In this document: piece after piece, positions 1,001-46,326 of the stretch | Layout: every line of letters begins with the position of its first letter | Numbering within the stretch: the first letter of the stretch is position 1 | DNA from: Bacillota bacterium | GTDB lineage: Bacteria > Bacillota > Clostridia > TANB77 > CAG-508 | Assembly: GCA_963929465.1 (NCBI GenBank) | Contig: CAWVJG010000029.1 | Span: forward strand, 1 to 49,410 | Reading direction: 5' to 3' | DNA length: 49,410 nucleotides | Notes under the pieces: model-generated | Database searches by the model: none | What the model was told of the DNA's origin: nothing | The model's input: the letters and a program-made list of their open reading frames with translations, nothing else | Program-made: the position numbers and the translations under genes

Positions 1001-3367
1001 TCATCTTTCTATTTCTTTTCTGGAATTTTCAATTGCTTTTGAACATTCGCTGATTTGCTTCAATTCCTCTTCTGTATATACTTTTTCTGGTTCTCTATCA
1101 CACACATATTGTAATAATCTTTTTACCCAACTGTTCTTTTCATTTCCGTTTTCATCATATCTGGCAGAATGATGTGTCACCTTTGTAATGATTTCTGGAT
1201 GCTCTCTTGCTTCCTTTCTTAATTTTGCAATATCAAATCTTTTGCCTTTAATAAATTCTGGTTCTAATTTTTCATATTCTTCTATTGCTAACCCAAATGT
1301 AGCTGTGTTTTTCCCTGGTTCTACTTCCCCATACTTTTTTCCATACAACTTTTCTATAATGGCTTTTTGTGTGTTGTGTAATTTGACAATTAAATATCCA
1401 CCTACATATTTTCTACTATAATTTTTATCTAATAATGCTAAAAGTTTCCATCTCTGATATGGATCTGTTACTGTATTTTTACCACTTGTTAGCCCCTCTT
1501 CTTCCTCTTTTTCCTTTCTAGTTGTTGTGTTTTCTCCTTTTATATCTGATGCATATGCAGAAATATAATTTTTCACTAATTTTTCTCTTTTCTTGACATT
1601 GTCACCATATGTTGTATAGATTAATATCAATTTTTCTGTTTCATCCATATCTGGATTTTGTAATATTTCCTCTATACTTACTTTTTCTTTCTCAGATTCA
1701 AAATATGTTCTTGCATCATTTGTTCTCAAATCACCTTGAAGGGTTAATTTTTTAACTAAATCATTTCCTCCTTGCTGTAACACAGTTTCTAAGATTAATA
1801 AATTATCTTTGTATAGTTCTATGATATCTTCTTGTGTAACATCTGTCATATGTTCTAGTATTTTTTTATCTGATTCCAGTTTTTCTTCTTCATTTAAATT
1901 TTCTCTTTTTAGTGCCTGGTATAATAATCCATATCTTTTATATTTCACAATGATATCACTATTTGTATGTTTACGTTTCTTTTCTTTTTTAGCATCTTGA
2001 TATAGATTTGCTAATTCTTCTTCTTGTAATTCTAAATCTATTTTTTGTCCTTCTGGCAATTTTTCATTAATTCTTTTGATTGTATCTAAGTTTATTCTAT
2101 TTTGTATATATACATCTAAAATATCTCTTGATGTCAAAATTCCTTTTTGATAATATTGATAAATTTGTTGTTCTTCTAATGGTATTGGATATCTTATAAT
2201 AGCTTCTTTTACATCTCTCTCATGAATTCTTCCTTGTTGAAAAGCCTCCATAACCAATTCTTTTTCTCCATAACTTGCAAGAACATCCATACTAATAATA
2301 TGATCACTATATAGGTTCATTAACATTTCATTACTTAAATCATCTTCTAATAAATTTACAATATCATCTCTATCTTGCATTCCTAAGGTATTGTGTAATT
2401 TTATTAGATTTTCATATTTTTTTCTTTTTTCTGGAAGTTCTTCATTTTGTCCTTTGTTTTGCCCTTCATTTTGTTCATCTTCATGATGAATTTCTTTATA
2501 TAAATCTGCAATTTCTTGAATATCGTAAAGTTCTTCTATTCTTCTTTGTAGTGTATTTTCCTTTCCATCTTCTATACTTTCTGCAGTCATTTGTAATCTT
2601 TCTTCTGGTGTTAGCAATTCCCAAGTTTCTTCATCATTTAAATCTATATTCTGATTATCTGTAAATTTTTGTTGTTTAATTTTTTGTTTGATACTATTGA
2701 AATCCATGTCTTTTTGCTTAGCATATGCTTCTACTCGTTTTAACGTAAATGTCCCACATTGATATAATCCTACCAAAGTTTCTTCTGATACAGGATAGTT
2801 TGTAGCGATTGTATATACAGTTGTATTATTTAATTTTTTTCTTTGTGCTAGATATAGAAGATTTTCTTCTTTTTGTGCCAATTTCCTTAATTGATCCTTA
2901 GAACAGTATTCTTCATATCCATTGGTTTCTTTTAATAAGATTTTCCCTGAGTCTATCTGCTCTTTTGTATAATATTCTTGCTTTTCTGCATTGTACTGAG
3001 AAAGGAATTTTTCCATATCTCTAATTCCATAAAAATGTTTATCATCTAATTTTATTTTTTCTTTCTCGTCTATCATTTTTACGATTTCTTGTAGCGCATG
3101 AAAAAATCTCTTTTCATCTTCTGCTAATTCTTTTCTTTCTTCTAATTTTTGATTTAATCTATGAGCATGATATAACACATATTTATCCGTATTTACATGT
3201 GATTTAAACATTTCTAAGAAAACTCTTAGATTTTCATTCAATATTCCATTATCTGCTAATTCAATTGTTTTTCCGAAATTTTTATCTTGCAATAGTTCAT
3301 TATTTTCTCCTAGAAAATATCTTTGTTTTTTTAAAGTTCTACCAATCAAAGCCCTAGTCATCGACAT
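1001..3367 (-). CDS. Uncharacterised 788-aa cytoplasmic repeat protein
   Basis: Long intact ORF, last gene of a 3-gene operon, with no TM segment or signal peptide. It has recurring helical units of the form LY..G[ILV][ST]..D[ILV] (IYQYYQKGILTSRDILDVY, LMNLYSDHIISMDVLASY, IIELYKDNLLILETVL). No family recognised. Confidence 0.6.
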   Translation of the reverse strand: MSMTRALIGRTLKKQRYFLGENNELLQDKNFGKTIELADNGILNENLRVFLEMFKSHVNTDKYVLYHAHRLNQKLEERKELAEDEKRFFHALQEIVKMIDEKEKIKLDDKHFYGIRDMEKFLSQYNAEKQEYYTKEQIDSGKILLKETNGYEEYCSKDQLRKLAQKEENLLYLAQRKKLNNTTVYTIATNYPVSEETLVGLYQCGTFTLKRVEAYAKQKDMDFNSIKQKIKQQKFTDNQNIDLNDEETWELLTPEERLQMTAESIEDGKENTLQRRIEELYDIQEIADLYKEIHHEDEQNEGQNKGQNEELPEKRKKYENLIKLHNTLGMQDRDDIVNLLEDDLSNEMLMNLYSDHIISMDVLASYGEKELVMEAFQQGRIHERDVKEAIIRYPIPLEEQQIYQYYQKGILTSRDILDVYIQNRINLDTIKRINEKLPEGQKIDLELQEEELANLYQDAKKEKKRKHTNSDIIVKYKRYGLLYQALKRENLNEEEKLESDKKILEHMTDVTQEDIIELYKDNLLILETVLQQGGNDLVKKLTLQGDLRTNDARTYFESEKEKVSIEEILQNPDMDETEKLILIYTTYGDNVKKREKLVKNYISAYASDIKGENTTTRKEKEEEEGLTSGKNTVTDPYQRWKLLALLDKNYSRKYVGGYLIVKLHNTQKAIIEKLYGKKYGEVEPGKNTATFGLAIEEYEKLEPEFIKGKRFDIAKLRKEAREHPEIITKVTHHSARYDENGNEKNSWVKRLLQYVCDREPEKVYTEEELKQISECSKAIENSRKEIER

Positions 3368-3385
3368 CCCATAAAACTCATCTTC

Positions 3386-3865
3386 TCAAGCTTCTCTTAA
3401 AGCTGATTCTAATTCTTTGTTTTCTATGTTGGGTAGTATTGTTTTTATTTTATCAAACTTTTCATTTTCTTTGTTTATCTCTTGTCCATATACTGTTATT
3501 CTAGAATCTATTAGCGTAAAACCCTTTTTCCCATCTCTTTCAGTGTCTATAAATACTTTAATAATTTCTTCTGGATTTATATATCTTTTTGCAAAATTTA
3601 TCGCTTTTTCTAATTCTTTTCTATTATCTTCTTCTAATTTTTTAGATACACCTATATATCTTGTTGATAAATCTTGTAATCTGTGAATCACTAAAACTAA
3701 TAATTTTTTAAAGTCAATACTTTCCGCGTTTTCCAAAAGATATTCTTCGATTGTTCGCTCCATTTTAACTTTTCCATGTCTATTAAATACATAGGATACT
3801 TCTCCTATACCTATTGTTACATTTACATTTTTTAATAAATTTTCTATTTCTCTTCTTGTTGCCAT
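3386..3865 (-). CDS. Hypothetical 159-aa protein (middle gene of 3-gene operon)
   Basis: Intact ORF 4 nt after the 265-aa gene and 18 nt before the 788-aa gene. It is charged, has no TM segment, and matches no family I recognise. Confidence 0.5.
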   Translation of the reverse strand: MATRREIENLLKNVNVTIGIGEVSYVFNRHGKVKMERTIEEYLLENAESIDFKKLLVLVIHRLQDLSTRYIGVSKKLEEDNRKELEKAINFAKRYINPEEIIKVFIDTERDGKKGFTLIDSRITVYGQEINKENEKFDKIKTILPNIENKELESALREA

Positions 3866-9423: not shown

Positions 9424-9457
9424 ATTATATAAACATTTTTAATGTTTCTTAAAATGT

Positions 9458-9486
9458 TTGACAAATCTAAACTATCTGTGTATAAT
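9458..9486 (+). promoter_or_regulatory. SigA-type promoter (sRNA copy 1)
   Basis: TTGACA-17 nt-TATAAT with an upstream TGTG (extended -10). Confidence 0.55.
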
Positions 9487-9491
9487 AAATA

Positions 9492-9579
9492 TAGGAAATA
9501 AAAGCCACAGAAAATGTGTGCTACCTATATGATAGATATACACCACATTGCTTGGCAGAGCAAAATGTGGTGTATTTTT
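9492..9579 (+). ncRNA. Candidate small RNA, copy 1 (antisense to the TSCPD-gene leader)
   Basis: A consensus promoter (9458-9486) is followed by about 85 nt ending in the hairpin tacaccacatt/aatgtggtgta (9539-9574) plus TTTTT. It is paralogous to 22532-22620. Confidence 0.45.
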
Positions 9580-12886: not shown

Positions 12887-12955
12887 ACAACGATAATATT
12901 ATATATTATTTTTCATTTTATGTCAATCTTTCTTTATTTTCTTCACGATGAAGGA

Positions 12956-13022
12956 TTTTAGGGACAGGCAAATCGGGAAAAATGAGTCCATCTCCAATTT
13001 CCCGATTTGTCCGTCCCCAAAA
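12956..13022. repeat. Repeat A2: imperfect inverted repeat containing the GGGAAAAATGAGTCC.TC.CCAA unit
   Basis: The arms at 12956-12980 and 12998-13022 are complementary with 3 mismatches. The centre matches the A3 arm sequence with 2 substitutions. Confidence 0.8.
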
Positions 13023-13110
13023 TTCTTCAATTGTTATTGCAGTTTTTTTTATTTAATGATATGATTATTTTAATAGGAACAAATCCGTTTAAGAAAAGAG
13101 GAATGATACT

Positions 13111-16176: not shown

Positions 16177-16237
16177 TTCTCCTTGTAAAATATATATTTT
16201 TTATCTATATGACAACACCTAATTATATATTTAATAA

Positions 16238-16439
16238 AGTTCAGTGTAGAATTCTTGTATATTTATTTTTATAAATGACGAATGTGATTGGAGAATGATT
16301 AGAAATTCTTAAATAATTTTATGGAAAATGTTCGCGCTTGACGTGAAAGGGCGCCATAAAATTATTTTAGAATTTCTTGGCATTCGTATTGAGCCGAGGA
16401 ATTTATAAAAATAAATATACAAGAATTCTACACTGAACT
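16238..16439. repeat. Foldback element B1 (202 bp)
   Basis: It has perfect 39-bp outer arms (16238-16276 and 16401-16439) and the conserved boxes GACGAATGTG and GAGCCGAGG. It also has an inner stem and a GC-rich apex. Confidence 0.9.
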
Positions 16440-16449
16440 GTAATTTCTT

Positions 16450-22452: not shown

Positions 22453-22497
22453 TTTTTAGCCTCCTAGCACTTACTCTCACATAATTAACAAAATTAT

Positions 22498-22526
22498 TTG
22501 ACAAATTTATTTAATCTGTGTATAAT
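22498..22526 (+). promoter_or_regulatory. SigA-type promoter (sRNA copy 2)
   Basis: TTGACA-17 nt-TATAAT with an upstream TGTG, near-identical to 9458-9486. Confidence 0.6.
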
Positions 22527-22531
22527 AATTA

Positions 22532-22620
22532 TAGGAAATGGAGAAACCACAAACGTGGTCAACCTCGGAATAATGTTTTAGACACATCAAACTTTGGCGA
22601 GTTTACAGATGTGTCTTTTG
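22532..22620 (+). ncRNA. Candidate antitoxin-type small RNA, copy 2
   Basis: The promoter is TTGACA-17-TATAAT (22498-22526). The transcript starts AUAGGAAAU, contains the hairpin CCACAAACGUGG and an ACCUC anti-SD-like box. Its terminator is agacacatc/gatgtgtct (22580-22616) plus TTTT, ending 3 nt from the toxin-like ORF stop. Confidence 0.5.
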
Positions 22621-24947: not shown

Positions 24948-24978
24948 GTCCCATTGGGGACGTTTCTGTTTGGGACAT
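24948..24978. repeat. Repeat V1 (31 bp)
   Basis: gtcccattggggacgtttctgtttgggacat matches 26466-26496 at 29 of 31 positions, in the same orientation. Confidence 0.85.
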
Positions 24979-24981
24979 TTT

Positions 24982-25169
24982 GAGGGATTTTGGGGACGGA
25001 CTCATTTTTCCCTTTTTTATAATTTTAAATTATCCTACTATTACATAATTACTTAGAATATGATTTGATAAATCTAAAATTAGTTTTGTAAAAATAATTT
25101 TTTTGTAGTCTATATCTCAGATTTCGTGATTTAAAAAAGGGAAAAATGAGTCCGTCCCCAAAATCCCTC
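24982..25169. repeat. Repeat A3: 188-bp element with perfect 35-bp terminal inverted repeats
   Basis: gagggattttggggacggactcatttttccctttt at 24982-25016 has its exact reverse complement at 25135-25169, with a 118-bp AT-rich spacer and no ORF. Confidence 0.9.
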
Positions 25170-25188
25170 AAAATTCCTAAATCAGACA

Positions 25189-26496
25189 CTAGTTTAAACC
25201 TGCCACATAACCTGTAGAATATGCTATTTGCAAATTAAATCCTCCTGTATAGCTATCTACATCAATAATTTCTCCTGCAAAAAATAATCCTTTCACTTTT
25301 TTAGATTCCATTGTTTTTGGATTAATTTCTTTGATATTAACTCCTCCACTTGTAATGATTGCCTCTTCTATTGGCCTAAATCCTCTTATTATGATTTCAA
25401 AGTCTTTGATTTCTTTTATTAGTTGTTCTCTTTCCTTTTTTGTTATTTCATTTACTTTTTTATTAGGATTTATTTTACTTCTTGCAATCACAACAGGTAT
25501 TAATTTCTGTGGTAACAATTTGTCTAAACTATTTTTAAATTGTTTATTTTTTGCATCTTCAAAATCTCTTAAGATTCTGTCATTTAATTTCTTTTCATCT
25601 AAAGCTGGTTTTAAATCTATTTTTAAAACTATCTTTTTTTCATGAAATAATTTATCAATATTTTTATATCTAACCAAATGTGCCGATGAACTTAAAATGG
25701 TTGGGCCTGAAACGCCAAAATGTGTAAATACCATTTCTCCAAAATCTTCATATATTTGCTTATGTTTTTCTATATCGATTAACTTGATTTCCACATTTCT
25801 TAAACTTAATCCCTGTAATTCCTTACATTCTGCTTTATCATATACCTCTAAAGGAACTAGCGATGGTTTTATTTCTGTTATACTATGTCCTAATTTTTCT
25901 ACTAATTGATATCCATCACCTGTTGAGCCTGTTAATGGATAACTTTTTCCTCCTGTGGCTAATATGACTTTATTTGCGTTTATGATTTCTCTATCTGTTT
26001 TTACTCCAATAACTGTATTTTCTCCATCTACCATTTCTGTTAAAATCTCTACAACTCTTGTATTATATTTTATATCTATATCTAATTCCTTAATTTTTTT
26101 AGTAAAACATTTTAAAACATCTATAGATTTATCTGTTACTGGAAAGATTCTGTTTCCTCTTTCTTCTTTTACTTCTAGTCCTTGTTGTTTTAGAAATTGA
26201 ATGATGTCTTGATTAGTATATTGCTGATAAGCACTATATAAAAACATACCATTTCCTGGTGTATTTTTGATAAAATCTTCCATCTCTAAAGAAGATGTAA
26301 TGTTACATCTTCCTTTTCCTGTAATTAAGAGCTTTTTACCTAATTGATTATTTTTTTCTATTATCAATACGTCATTTTTATTTTCTTTAGCCGTAATCGC
26401 TGCCATCATTCCAGCAGGACCACCACCAATCACTATTACTTTATCCAAAACCAATTCCTTTCTATGTCCAATTGGGGACGTTTCTATTTGGGACAT
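25189..26496 (-). CDS. BaiN/HI0933-family NAD(P)/FAD-dependent oxidoreductase
   Basis: Motifs VIVIGGGPAGMMAA and TGKGRCNITS. The ATG at 26496 overlaps the upstream stop (TAATG), but the first 10 codons are the V2 repeat. An alternative TTG at 26448 follows AAAGGA. Confidence 0.8.
   Translation of the reverse strand: MSQIETSPIGHRKELVLDKVIVIGGGPAGMMAAITAKENKNDVLIIEKNNQLGKKLLITGKGRCNITSSLEMEDFIKNTPGNGMFLYSAYQQYTNQDIIQFLKQQGLEVKEERGNRIFPVTDKSIDVLKCFTKKIKELDIDIKYNTRVVEILTEMVDGENTVIGVKTDREIINANKVILATGGKSYPLTGSTGDGYQLVEKLGHSITEIKPSLVPLEVYDKAECKELQGLSLRNVEIKLIDIEKHKQIYEDFGEMVFTHFGVSGPTILSSSAHLVRYKNIDKLFHEKKIVLKIDLKPALDEKKLNDRILRDFEDAKNKQFKNSLDKLLPQKLIPVVIARSKINPNKKVNEITKKEREQLIKEIKDFEIIIRGFRPIEEAIITSGGVNIKEINPKTMESKKVKGLFFAGEIIDVDSYTGGFNLQIAYSTGYVAGLN
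26466..26496. repeat. Repeat V2 (31 bp)
   Basis: gtccaattggggacgtttctatttgggacat is the direct-repeat partner of V1. It overlaps the annotated first 10 codons of the BaiN-like ORF. Confidence 0.85.
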
Positions 26497-28271: not shown

Positions 28272-28370
28272 GAAGCGTAAAGATTTGTCAACACGAAAAA
28301 TTGCTACGCCATTTTTCTGTGCAACGTTGTTTTTTATTGAATAGGAAAAAATAATTTTTCCTATTCAATA
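28272..28370. repeat. Repeat C1 (right-hand module of family C)
   Basis: It is highly similar over about 100 bp to 46226-46326 (by eye, close to 9 in 10 positions) and ends in the perfect hairpin tattgaataggaaaaa/tttttcctattcaata. Confidence 0.85.
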
Positions 28371-29213: not shown

Positions 29214-29501
29214 TTATTTTTCTACTTTTACTGTAATAAATTTTATAATGTCATCTGTAATTCTGTAAACTCTTTCAAGTTCAGCTATTAATTCTGGTTT
29301 TGCTTCAAAGTTGAATAACATATATGTAGCTTCTTTGAATTTTTTAATATCATAAGCTAGTTTTCTTTTTCCCATGTTTTCAACTGATTCTACTTTACCA
29401 TTTTCATTGATTAATCCTGTGAATTTTTCTTCTAAAGCTTTTAAACCTGCTTCATCAACATTTGGATTAACAATGATAATACTTTCGTATTTATTCATCA
29501 T
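29214..29501 (-). CDS. rpsF: 30S ribosomal protein S6
   Basis: 95 aa, YESIIIVNP ... RKLAY; first gene of the S6-SSB-S18 operon. Confidence 0.95.
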   Translation of the reverse strand: MMNKYESIIIVNPNVDEAGLKALEEKFTGLINENGKVESVENMGKRKLAYDIKKFKEATYMLFNFEAKPELIAELERVYRITDDIIKFITVKVEK

Positions 29502-29584
29502 CTTTCACCTCCCTATGGATTTATAACCTGTGTGTTTCACAAGTAGAGATTTAAAAATAGCTATGCTATCTTTAAAGCACAGCT

Positions 29585-29613
29585 ATTTTATCATATTTTT
29601 CTCTACATTGCAA
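29585..29613 (-). promoter_or_regulatory. SigA-type promoter of rpsF-ssb-rpsR
   Basis: On the minus strand, TTGCAA-17 nt-TAAAAT. The roughly 80-nt leader contains a hairpin (agctgtgct/agcatagct). Confidence 0.5.
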
Positions 29614-29656
29614 GCATATTTTTACTTTTATTTTAATTATTCTATCTTTTGGATAC

Positions 29657-29888
29657 GGTTCAGACTAGTGTATCAGGGGGAAAGTATTTATAAATTATTT
29701 CATTACGAATGTGATTGGAAAATATTTAGAAATTCTTAAAGCATTTTTTGGGAAAATGTTCACGTCGAACGTAGTGAGAACTAAGTGAAAGGGTGCCATA
29801 AAATGATTTTAGAATTTCTTAATATTTGTATTGAACCGAGTAATAAATAATTTATAAATACTTTCCCCTTGATACACTAGTCTAAACT
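29657..29888. repeat. Foldback element B2 (232 bp)
   Basis: The inner core is highly similar to B1. The outer arms of about 45 bp are different from B1 but pair with each other (2 non-Watson-Crick positions). Confidence 0.9.
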
Positions 29889-29942
29889 GTAACATCTTTT
29901 ATTCTTTATAAAAATCGACTATACGAGATTATTCTGCTCCAT

Positions 29943-30473
29943 TTAATTTCGTAATTCAAACCATTTTGGCGCTATAAAACAATACATAATAATTGTAATC
30001 AGATTATAAATTACAATATATGCCCTAAATAAAAATGCATAATATGTGTCTCTTTCTTGTATTAAATATTCTTGTAATGTTTCAGTAGCACTTCTCAATG
30101 TTCCGATAATTTCCTGTAGTTGTTTTCTTTCACTATTTGTTAATGTATTATCATATTCTATACTACTTTGTGGTATTTCGCTATCTATCAATTCTTCATA
30201 TTCTTTCATTTCTTTTCCTACATAAAAGACGTTATATACAACAAGTATAATTGAAAAAACAATTAGCACTTTTTTTAGATCGTCTATGTCAACATCTTTC
30301 CATAATGCATTTACTCCTATAAATACAATACCGATACTTGTTAGTATACATATTAAATAACTGACAAGTTCATTTGTTTGTAGATTAAATATATCCAGCA
30401 AGCCATTAAATACGAGATTGATAATCACATTTACTAGTAATAATCTTATGACTTCTTTTACAATTTCTTTCAT
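29943..30473 (-). CDS. Hypothetical membrane protein (176 aa)
   Basis: About 4 predicted TM helices with a charged central loop. No family recognised. Confidence 0.45.
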   Translation of the reverse strand: MKEIVKEVIRLLLVNVIINLVFNGLLDIFNLQTNELVSYLICILTSIGIVFIGVNALWKDVDIDDLKKVLIVFSIILVVYNVFYVGKEMKEYEELIDSEIPQSSIEYDNTLTNSERKQLQEIIGTLRSATETLQEYLIQERDTYYAFLFRAYIVIYNLITIIMYCFIAPKWFELRN

Positions 30474-33204: not shown

Positions 33205-33432
33205 TCCGTTTCGAGATTTTAGCAGGTGAGGTGATATGTATTATTTTTTGAATGTATTGACGAATGTGCCGTGGAATAGATGTATAAATTCTTAGTTTTC
33301 AATAAATGAGGAAGCGCGAGCAGCGAGAGGCTCGTTTATTGAAATCTTAGAAGTTATCATCTATGAAGCAAGCCGAGGAAATCATGAAAAAAATAATACA
33401 TATCACCTCACCTGCTAAAATCTCGAAACGGA
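33205..33432. repeat. Foldback element B3 (228 bp)
   Basis: It has perfect 45-bp outer arms (33205-33249 and 33388-33432) unrelated to those of B1 and B2. It keeps the same GACGAATGTG (33259-33268) and AGCCGAGG (33371-33378) boxes. Confidence 0.85.
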
Positions 33433-46056: not shown

Positions 46057-46326
46057 ATGGGTTAGGACAATAGCGGGCTTTTTTTAACATTTTTCTGTTC
46101 ATAACATTTCAAAGCCCGCGTCATTTCTCCGCATAACTTATCTGTAGCTTGCTTTGCTTCGCACAGCTAAGAAATGTTCGGCGCCAAATTTTACGTTAGT
46201 AAAATTTGTGTGTAATCGTTAGAGCGAAGCGTAAAGATTTGTCGACGCAAAAAATTGCATAGCAATTTTTCTGTGCAACGTTGTTTTTTGTTGAATAGGA
46301 AAAACTCGCTTTTTCCTATTCAACAA
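46057..46326. repeat. Repeat C2 (composite: C3-like module plus C1-like module)
   Basis: 46057-46233 parallels 48539-48656 (ttag.acaatagcgggcttttt, cccgcgt, gttcggcgcc, aattttac-GNNA-gtaaaatt, aatcgttag..cgaagcgt), and 46226-46326 parallels C1. Confidence 0.85.

Follow-up and report, generated by a model that had tools for sequence, protein, structure and literature searches.

The defining features of MITEs have been summarized (PMC3184786) and are matched by the foldback repeats described here (in the following termed B family), which combine terminal inverted repeats, a target duplication of fixed length, a small size without a transposase gene, and dispersed, polymorphic copies. Like the B family, the bcr1 elements of the B. 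cereus group (approximately 155 bp) are small, dispersed intergenic Firmicutes repeats with short direct repeats, and in both cases the fold is preserved by compensatory changes (PMC3184786). In bcr1, which is unrelated in sequence and known to be transcribed, the direct repeats measure 5 bp and the fold is cruciform-like with two hairpins, in contrast to the 8-bp duplications, the variable arms of 35–110 nt and the single long, irregular hairpin with conserved apex of the B family. Terminal inverted repeats, target duplications, the lack of a transposase gene, a size of 100–400 bp, the intergenic position and long RNA hairpins are likewise common to the B family and the Correia/NEMIS, ERIC and RUP elements (PMC3184786). 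The B family differs from the latter by its tips and duplication length, by a centre that is better kept than the ends, and by its different, uncultured host clade. The target duplication of Correia and RUP elements is TA.

REPINs are REP doublets that form hairpins and are mobilized by RAYT transposases; they resemble the B family as multi-copy hairpins with compensatory changes on both sides, and for their structure, too, a role at the level of single-stranded DNA or mRNA has been suggested (PMC3116915). The distribution of conservation is opposite in the two: REPINs have conserved ends (REP) and a variable spacer, whereas in the B family it is the centre that is conserved and the ends that are variable. 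Transposition of single strands by HUH/RAYT-type enzymes is not known to generate 8-bp duplications; the variable ends and 8-bp duplications of the B family argue against its membership in the REPIN/RAYT group. Among the DNA sites with strand-specific folding, integron attC sites are imperfect palindromes of which one strand folds better and whose structure is conserved above sequence, properties that are shared by the core of the B elements. However, attC sites occur in cassette arrays without 8-bp duplications, and their base contains conserved boxes, the centre being variable; none of this holds for the B family. The B family was filed as a new family of the MITE kind, with an 8-bp target duplication, reversed conservation and one core on different arm types.

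The insertion at the B2 locus

The window (the whole stretch of DNA analyzed, 49,410 nucleotides of contig CAWVJG010000029.1 from a Bacillota bacterium) contains the element B2 in the spacer between a 176-aa membrane gene (ORF 29943-30473) and the promoter of rpsF (29214-29501); the surrounding genes, including ssb and rpsR, are all encoded on the minus strand. The features of the locus are as follows.

29585..29613, minus strand: predicted rpsF promoter, host-owned (TTGCAA-17-TAAAAT with TG), 30 bp from the insertion
29644..29651, no strand: left copy of the target duplication, ATCTTTTG, direct repeat of 29894-29901 (7/8 match)
29652..29893, plus strand: B2 element, probable foldback MITE, tips GATACGGTTCAG... 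and ...CTAAACTGTAAC (family tip consensus GTTACAGTTCA)
29654..29700, no strand: left arm, terminal inverted repeat of 47 nt, 94% complementary to 29845-29891
29845..29891, no strand: right arm, inverted-repeat match to the left arm
29894..29901, no strand: right copy of the target duplication, ATCTTTTA, present once at the unoccupied site

B2 is an insertion that is filled in some lineages and empty in others. Metagenome contigs (L001-L009) that encode exactly the same 176-aa protein contain the element at 98–100% identity. The S6 protein is identical in the contigs L011, L015 and L016, whose rpsF-side flank is 96.5–97% identical, yet these contigs are devoid of window positions 29652-29901: their sequence jumps from approximately 29651 to approximately 29894 and contains ATCTTTTA as a single copy. 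The unoccupied site reads ...TTATTCTATCTTTTATTCC..., the filled site ...TTATTCTATCTTTTG, followed by the element (GATACGGTTCAG...CTAAACTGTAAC) and ATCTTTTATTC...; the flanks of B2 constitute an 8-bp target duplication with 7/8 positions alike (ATCTTTTG versus ATCTTTTA). Because related strains with identical S6 have an empty site, B2 has to be regarded as an insertion outside the rpsF operon, and its limits follow from the comparison of filled and unoccupied sites (29652-29893, 242 bp, tips GATAC.../...GTAAC). A preliminary description made from the sequence alone had placed a foldback at 29657-29888; the foldback is present there, whereas the true limits are slightly wider.

The foldback itself is borne out by the two 47-nt arms, which enclose 144 nt, and by a hairpin energy far beyond chance: as one hairpin, the plus strand reaches −99.1 kcal/mol (z = −14.1) and the minus strand −89.3 kcal/mol (z = −15.4), with 0/200 shuffles as good. 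All sequence strings quoted in the preliminary description were recovered at their coordinates, among them the two non-Watson-Crick arm positions G.U 29676/29869 and C.A 29661/29884, to which an additional G.U at 29657/29888 has to be added. The B2 orthologues differ at only six variable sites; one variant restores G-C at 29676/29869, another the family consensus GAGGAC at 29779. All full-length strain-level copies (7/7) are in the orientation of the window, and the B2 arm is the end point of three contigs (assembly breaks).

Two further observations concern the neighborhood. In L003 (~1744-3643; also in L005 and L009), an IS-like element is located between B2 and the rpsF −35 region at a position equivalent to window ~29619; its 440-aa ORF encodes an HTH_38 domain (IS30-like), and GCAAGACTAAAT motifs are repeated at the ends of the element. 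As a partner of B2 it was rejected, its ends being unrelated to the tips of the B elements. The 5′ leader of rpsF contains a hairpin just downstream of the predicted promoter (window 29541-29604, AAAAATAGCTATGCTATC...CACAGCTATTTT) that might represent the S6:S18 autoregulatory leader; there was no Rfam match above noise for this hairpin.

A dispersed family with apparently exchangeable arms

A second copy and a distant relative of B2 are present in the window.

16235..16442, plus strand: B1, second family copy, short-apex variant; left tip decayed, no target duplication visible
33205..33432, plus strand: distant relative with 50-nt arms (96% complementary) and a ACGAATGTG...AGCCGAGGAA junction as in B1 and B2

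The common core of B1 and B2, first noticed by eye, was confirmed by alignment (78% identity over 72 nt, 85% over 66 nt), and so was the statement that their arms are unrelated save for the GTTCAG tip and TTTATAAAT. The foldback at 33205-33432 is a distant member of the B superfamily, scoring below the nhmmer threshold with the B profile; its apex is a different one (GGAAGCGCGAGCAGCGAGAGGCTCG), similar to the optional insert found at the apex of the long B variant.

Searching a genome collection for 18 nt of the apex, without mismatches, yielded at least 118 stretches; among the matches listed, approximately 93% belonged to uncultured Clostridia/Clostridium/Eubacteriales MAGs, at least 28 in number, and a single MAG contained up to 10 or more copies. 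Five pattern matches in unrelated phyla were discarded as chance hits, the rest of the core being absent. A profile search with nhmmer retrieved ~10 further copies that do not contain the exact pattern; among the matches listed and those of the profile search, the core is represented by ~90 copies in at least 28 uncultured Clostridia MAGs. The MAGs bearing the family originate from human, rabbit and mouse gut and have a G+C content of ~27%. The core gave no match in BLAST searches against PLSDB plasmids and INPHARED phages, nor did the pattern scan of IMG/VR; for the window, there was no Rfam match at gathering thresholds, and E-value scans of B2, B1 and 33205-33432 revealed only generic hairpin (plant MIR) matches far below threshold.

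The arms are 20–116 nt in length, near-perfect within a copy and almost unrelated between copies. Full-length copies end in GTTAC(A/T)NTTCA, and the tipped elements measure 231–261 bp. Among ~18 tipped copies, the 8-bp duplication is perfect in six, has one mismatch in five and two mismatches in three. All copies are intergenic, typically 0–70 nt past a stop codon and 100–150 nt before the next start. There is no conserved ORF in the elements, because the apex indel shifts the frame between the short and long variants; small peptides that could be read in the apex (MENVR..., MAPFH...) were rejected on account of this frame difference and the lack of a ribosome-binding site. The assignment to a MITE family is based on the dispersed core, the differing arms, and duplications with 7–8/8 identical positions in 11 of the ~18 tipped copies.

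Foldbacks of another type, with arms containing GGGGACGG, are present in the window at 24962-25189, 65-199 and 12949-13029; in their centres, they bear no relation to the B core. In four loci elsewhere (L075, L106, L113, L133), the B core is found directly between arms of the GGGGACGG type; arms and centres therefore appear to be exchangeable modules, and the core is combined with no fewer than two unrelated types of arm (GTTAC-tipped and GGGGACG-type). Composite elements were also observed: in L118 (3413-3855), the apical loop of a GTTAC-tipped B element houses an additional B core in reverse orientation, whereas in L026, L098 and L019 an inner B element, bordered by CATGTTC and GCCCTGAACAT, lies within GGGGAC-type arms of 68–116 nt. 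Truncated or rearranged half copies of the core (L081 ~750, L051 ~3241, L058 ~2890, L023 ~4560) have a whole right half and a left half that is replaced at or near the apex; the apical loop therefore looks like a breakpoint or insertion hot spot. The copies L067 and L095 differ at seven arm positions, each of which is matched on the opposite arm. In L086 (5256-5506) and L129 (4002-4251), which represent two MAG species, the same insertion with the same arms and collinear, 96–98% identical flanks contains the core in opposite orientations, from which it follows that arm-to-arm recombination can flip the centre; this is the one flip among two clean orthologous pairs.

Two further repeats were noticed in the window. 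An 88-nt direct repeat (86% identity) is located at 28272-28359, downstream of rpsR, and 18 kb away at 46226-46313; its end is formed by a hairpin that resembles a bidirectional terminator (ATTGAATAGGAAAAA...TTTTTCCTATTCAAT). Another repeat, of 49 nt (84% identity; 9451-9499 and 22491-22539) looks like a common strong promoter (TTGACAAAT...TCTGTGTATAATAA).

A transposase that might serve the family was searched for by several routes. In 943 kb of loci, GTTAC..TTCA tips never occurred as a pair with a spacing above 450 bp, there was no multi-copy ORF among the 660 ORFs of at least 150 aa in these loci, and the scan of metagenomes for the tip pattern yielded 17 chance matches, all of them without the core. 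As MAGs usually lose IS copies in assembly, the missing transposase is weak evidence. A tentative candidate source of the transposase is the IS6/IS26 family (for example IS1216), which makes 8-bp target duplications; the tip GTTACTGTTCAGAGTTAAT shows a loose resemblance to the terminus GGTTCTGTTGCAAAGTTTTAAAT of IS1216 (verified beside an annotated IS1216 transposase); the resemblance is not significant (271/2000 shuffles score as well), and no IS6 transposase was seen near any copy.

Structure and folding strand of the core

An irregular hairpin is conserved in the central 115–145 nt of the elements from at least 28 species-level MAGs. The alignment of the core comprises 78 distinct copies; with reference to B2, its structural elements are the following.

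29701..29844, plus strand: structured core (78-copy alignment, alifold, pair counts, strand energy test)
29708..29713, plus strand: helix 1, 5′ side AATGTG, pairs with TGTATT 29827-29832 (three G.U in B2)
29721..29724, plus strand: helix 2, 5′ side (A)AATA, pairs with TATT(T) 29823-29826; 4/4 pairs covary (AU/UA/GC)
29728..29752, plus strand: helix 3, 5′ side AGAAATTCT...ATTTTTTGGG, pairs with 29796-29819
29753..29758, plus strand: purine-rich internal loop, 5′ side AAAATG, opposite AGGGTG 29790-29795
29759..29789, plus strand: apical helix 4 (TTCAC 29759-29763 / GTGAA 29785-29789), encloses the optional insert hairpin

RNAalifold predicted 29 pairs for the 78 copies, 13 of them with compensatory changes. 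In the 38-pair, four-helix model, 94.1% of the cells pair versus 83.5% in column shuffles (0/500 as high), while sliding partners pair in only 40–50% of the cells. Compensatory change was detected at 15/38 pairs and in 310 cells, a count of non-independent events as the copies are mutually related; the covariation score is 0.296 versus 0.106. The stems of the core covary. Helix 3 comprises 23 pairs, eight with compensatory changes and 96.8% of the cells paired; helix 1 takes the Watson-Crick form AATACG/CGTATT in one subfamily. The optional 21-nt insert hairpin (29764-29784) is present in B2, not in B1, and is missing from about half of the copies; where present, it covaries (GCGTAGC / ACGTAGT / ACAGC..GCTGT). 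The two sides of the internal loop may be read as A.G, A-U, A.G, A.G, U.G and G.A.

Conservation at the apex is inflated, since the copies were gathered by exact match to 18 nt there; the pairwise identity of the left apex strand TTTTATGGAAAATGTTCGC, which lies outside the search pattern, is 95%, compared with 48% for the covarying stem columns and ~30% for the arms. In the divergent copies without the pattern, the apical helix is kept by compensatory TTCACG/CGTGGA, TTCAAG/CTTGGA and TGAG/CTCA, and the purine-rich internal loop is retained. K-turn, T-loop and plasmid single-strand-origin (CS-6) motifs do not fit the sequence.

The pairing register of the preliminary description, ACGAATG with CATTCGT in B1 and with TATTTGT in B2, does not covary across the family: ACGAATG is constant across copies while its supposed partner varies. 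The covarying partner of CATTC (B1) and TATTT (B2) is GAATG 16293-16297 and AAATA 29720-29724, respectively; the region of ACGAATG is engaged in helix 1. The two C-to-T changes that had been taken as preserving G.U pairs in a plus-strand RNA are in the wrong register and are matched by G-to-A changes in GGAGAATG/GGAAAATA; being G-C to A-U double substitutions, they therefore hold no strand information.

The strand assignment was nevertheless right for the core, as follows from its G.U excess and the strand energies. Across the 78 copies, G.U cells outnumber A.C cells by 239 to 32, the chief sites being TTCGC/GTGAA (64 G.U, 14 A-U) and AATGTG/CGTATT. The plus strand of the core is the more stable one in 76/78 copies with RNA parameters (mean 7.8 kcal/mol) and in 75/78 with DNA parameters (mean 2.6 kcal/mol). 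Many copies contain tandem G.A/A.G at the junction of arm and core (TTGAAT/ATGAAA), which on the other strand corresponds to a pyrimidine-pyrimidine mismatch. The arms are without strand bias (G.U 43, A.C 33). The plus-strand structure that had been proposed from weak, 3-to-1 evidence in B2 is supported for the core and not for the arms; the arms, with their equal split between strands, look neutral as the preliminary description had anticipated for an unselected structure, whereas the core does not. The molecule that folds may be RNA or single-stranded DNA, as both tolerate G.U/G.T and tandem G.A pairs.

In 56 tandem contexts, the plus strand of the core is antisense to the neighboring genes in 40 and sense in 16; B1 and B2 are antisense. 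Either transcription or replication may be the cause of this orientation bias. Arm polarity (5′ arm G-rich in 49/62 copies) was dismissed as uninformative on core orientation, because a perfect inverted repeat shows the same on both strands; T-richness after the hairpin and local GC skew were also set aside, both being confounded with gene orientation.

Origin and possible function of the elements

On the strength of these comparisons, B2 is probably (with a probability of roughly 0.7) a non-autonomous DNA transposon, i.e. a foldback MITE, inserted with an 8-bp duplication in one lineage of an uncultured gut Clostridia species with ~28% G+C. A transposase supplied in trans would read the tips and move the element; the sole pointer to its class, putatively DDE-type, is the fixed length of the duplication. 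The core would be kept by selection on the element itself, as suggested by the unrelated, recently filled sites that all keep the core while the arms have diverged to saturation, and would probably be active in single-stranded, folded form, either as RNA or as single-stranded DNA, when the element propagates or maintains itself. Effects on the host at this locus would be incidental: the read-through transcript of the membrane gene would contain a hairpin of approximately −90 kcal/mol that could be cut by RNase III, and consequences for rpsF would be incidental as well, because its promoter is intact 30 bp away and relatives without B2 have the same promoter. Against the MITE interpretation stands that no transposase sharing the tips was found in the 943 kb of loci or in the metagenome scan, and that a transposase is expected to conserve the ends of its substrate rather than the centre. 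Further points against it are the lack of a predicted plus-strand promoter at B2 and the antisense orientation in 40/56 contexts; a plus-strand RNA would therefore need its own, unseen promoter.

The centre may tentatively be regarded as a previously undescribed structured motif (an irregular hairpin with the purine-rich internal loop GGAAAAUGUUCRC / GUGAAAGGGUGCC and with conserved G.U and tandem G.A pairs) that is the selected unit, travels on different inverted-repeat backbones and has a swappable apex; as a joint and equally tentative proposal, this motif might be an RNA or single-stranded DNA cofactor of mobilization, or a protein-binding or catalytic RNA.

Rather unlikely is that the core constitutes a small RNA gene or domesticated structured RNA, expressed from the plus strand with a host function (protein binding, ribozyme), for which the MITE arms would be a vehicle only and, after RNase III cutting, a processing signal. 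Covarying stems combined with conserved loops, conserved G.U pairs, tandem G.A pairs and a hairpin that is optional at the apex are the classical signature of an RNA, and the higher stability of the plus strand in 76/78 copies, the identical core on at least two unrelated arm types and the T-rich sequence 3′ of the plus-strand hairpin in B1 and B2 are in line with this proposal. However, there is no conserved promoter in prediction or alignment, the plus strand is antisense to its neighbors in 40/56 contexts, no Rfam match was obtained, and the flank difference in T-richness is small and confounded with the AT skew of the genome; moreover, such a gene would not need dozens of freshly duplicated insertions scattered over unrelated sites of each genome.

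A function as host terminator or insulator, or as 3′-end stabilizer for the upstream gene, would be compatible with the MITE interpretation and is judged unlikely. The hairpin is very stable on both strands and copies usually start 0–70 nt past the upstream stop and 100–150 nt before the next start; this position may just mark the only tolerated part of short spacers. No terminator-like site was predicted in window 29450-30000, and the sequence 3′ of the B2 hairpin on the transcribed (minus) strand is A-rich without a U-tract, which does not correspond to an intrinsic terminator; the strand-specific features of the core would also be left unexplained.

Improbable as an account of the whole element is a neutral quasi-palindrome, in which template switching or gene conversion between arms mimics covariation without a selected structure. 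The arms agree with such an origin, being near-perfect within and different between copies (as in the seven matched changes of L067 and L095) and without strand bias, and the inverted core of L086/L129 shows that arm-to-arm recombination takes place; template switching may well explain the arms. In the core, by contrast, asymmetric loops should vanish under this process, yet the unpaired AAAATG/AGGGTG and the junctions are best conserved, and neither the 239:32 excess of G.U on one strand nor the tandem G.A pairs are predicted by it.

It is very improbable that the element is an inverton, with the arms as recombination sites and an orientation-dependent signal in the core: the opposite core orientations of L086 and L129 between the same flanks and arms, and the 40:16 bias which suggests that orientation matters, are set against the identical orientation of the 7/7 full-length strain-level B2 copies, the single flip among two clean orthologous pairs, and the lack of a conserved promoter or terminator in the core and of a linked invertase gene. 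That B2 regulates the rpsF-ssb-rpsR operon in cis, as implied by the preliminary description, is hardly to be expected despite its position 30 bp upstream of the predicted rpsF −35 region and a weak internal promoter-like site aimed at rpsF (29721 to 29694, 9/12 with TG), given that the latter is absent as a conserved feature from B1 and the main subfamilies, that lineages with identical S6 and an identical promoter sequence are without the element, and that B2 is one of many copies dispersed beside unrelated genes.

Under the MITE interpretation, the candidate regulator of rpsF is removed from the annotation of the window, and three of its foldbacks (B1, B2 and 33205-33432) are explained as one mobile repeat family. 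This family is abundant in uncultured, AT-rich gut Clostridia (human, rabbit and mouse metagenomes) and breaks their assemblies. It would provide a natural case of purifying selection that acts on the centre of a MITE, and not on its ends, for a strand-specific fold. If the core is indeed a functional RNA or a single-stranded DNA cofactor of transposition, it would represent a new structured motif and offer a handle on the movement of these repeats; if the motif is the selected unit, the family would exemplify a transposon with its essential cis-acting part in the folded middle instead of the ends.
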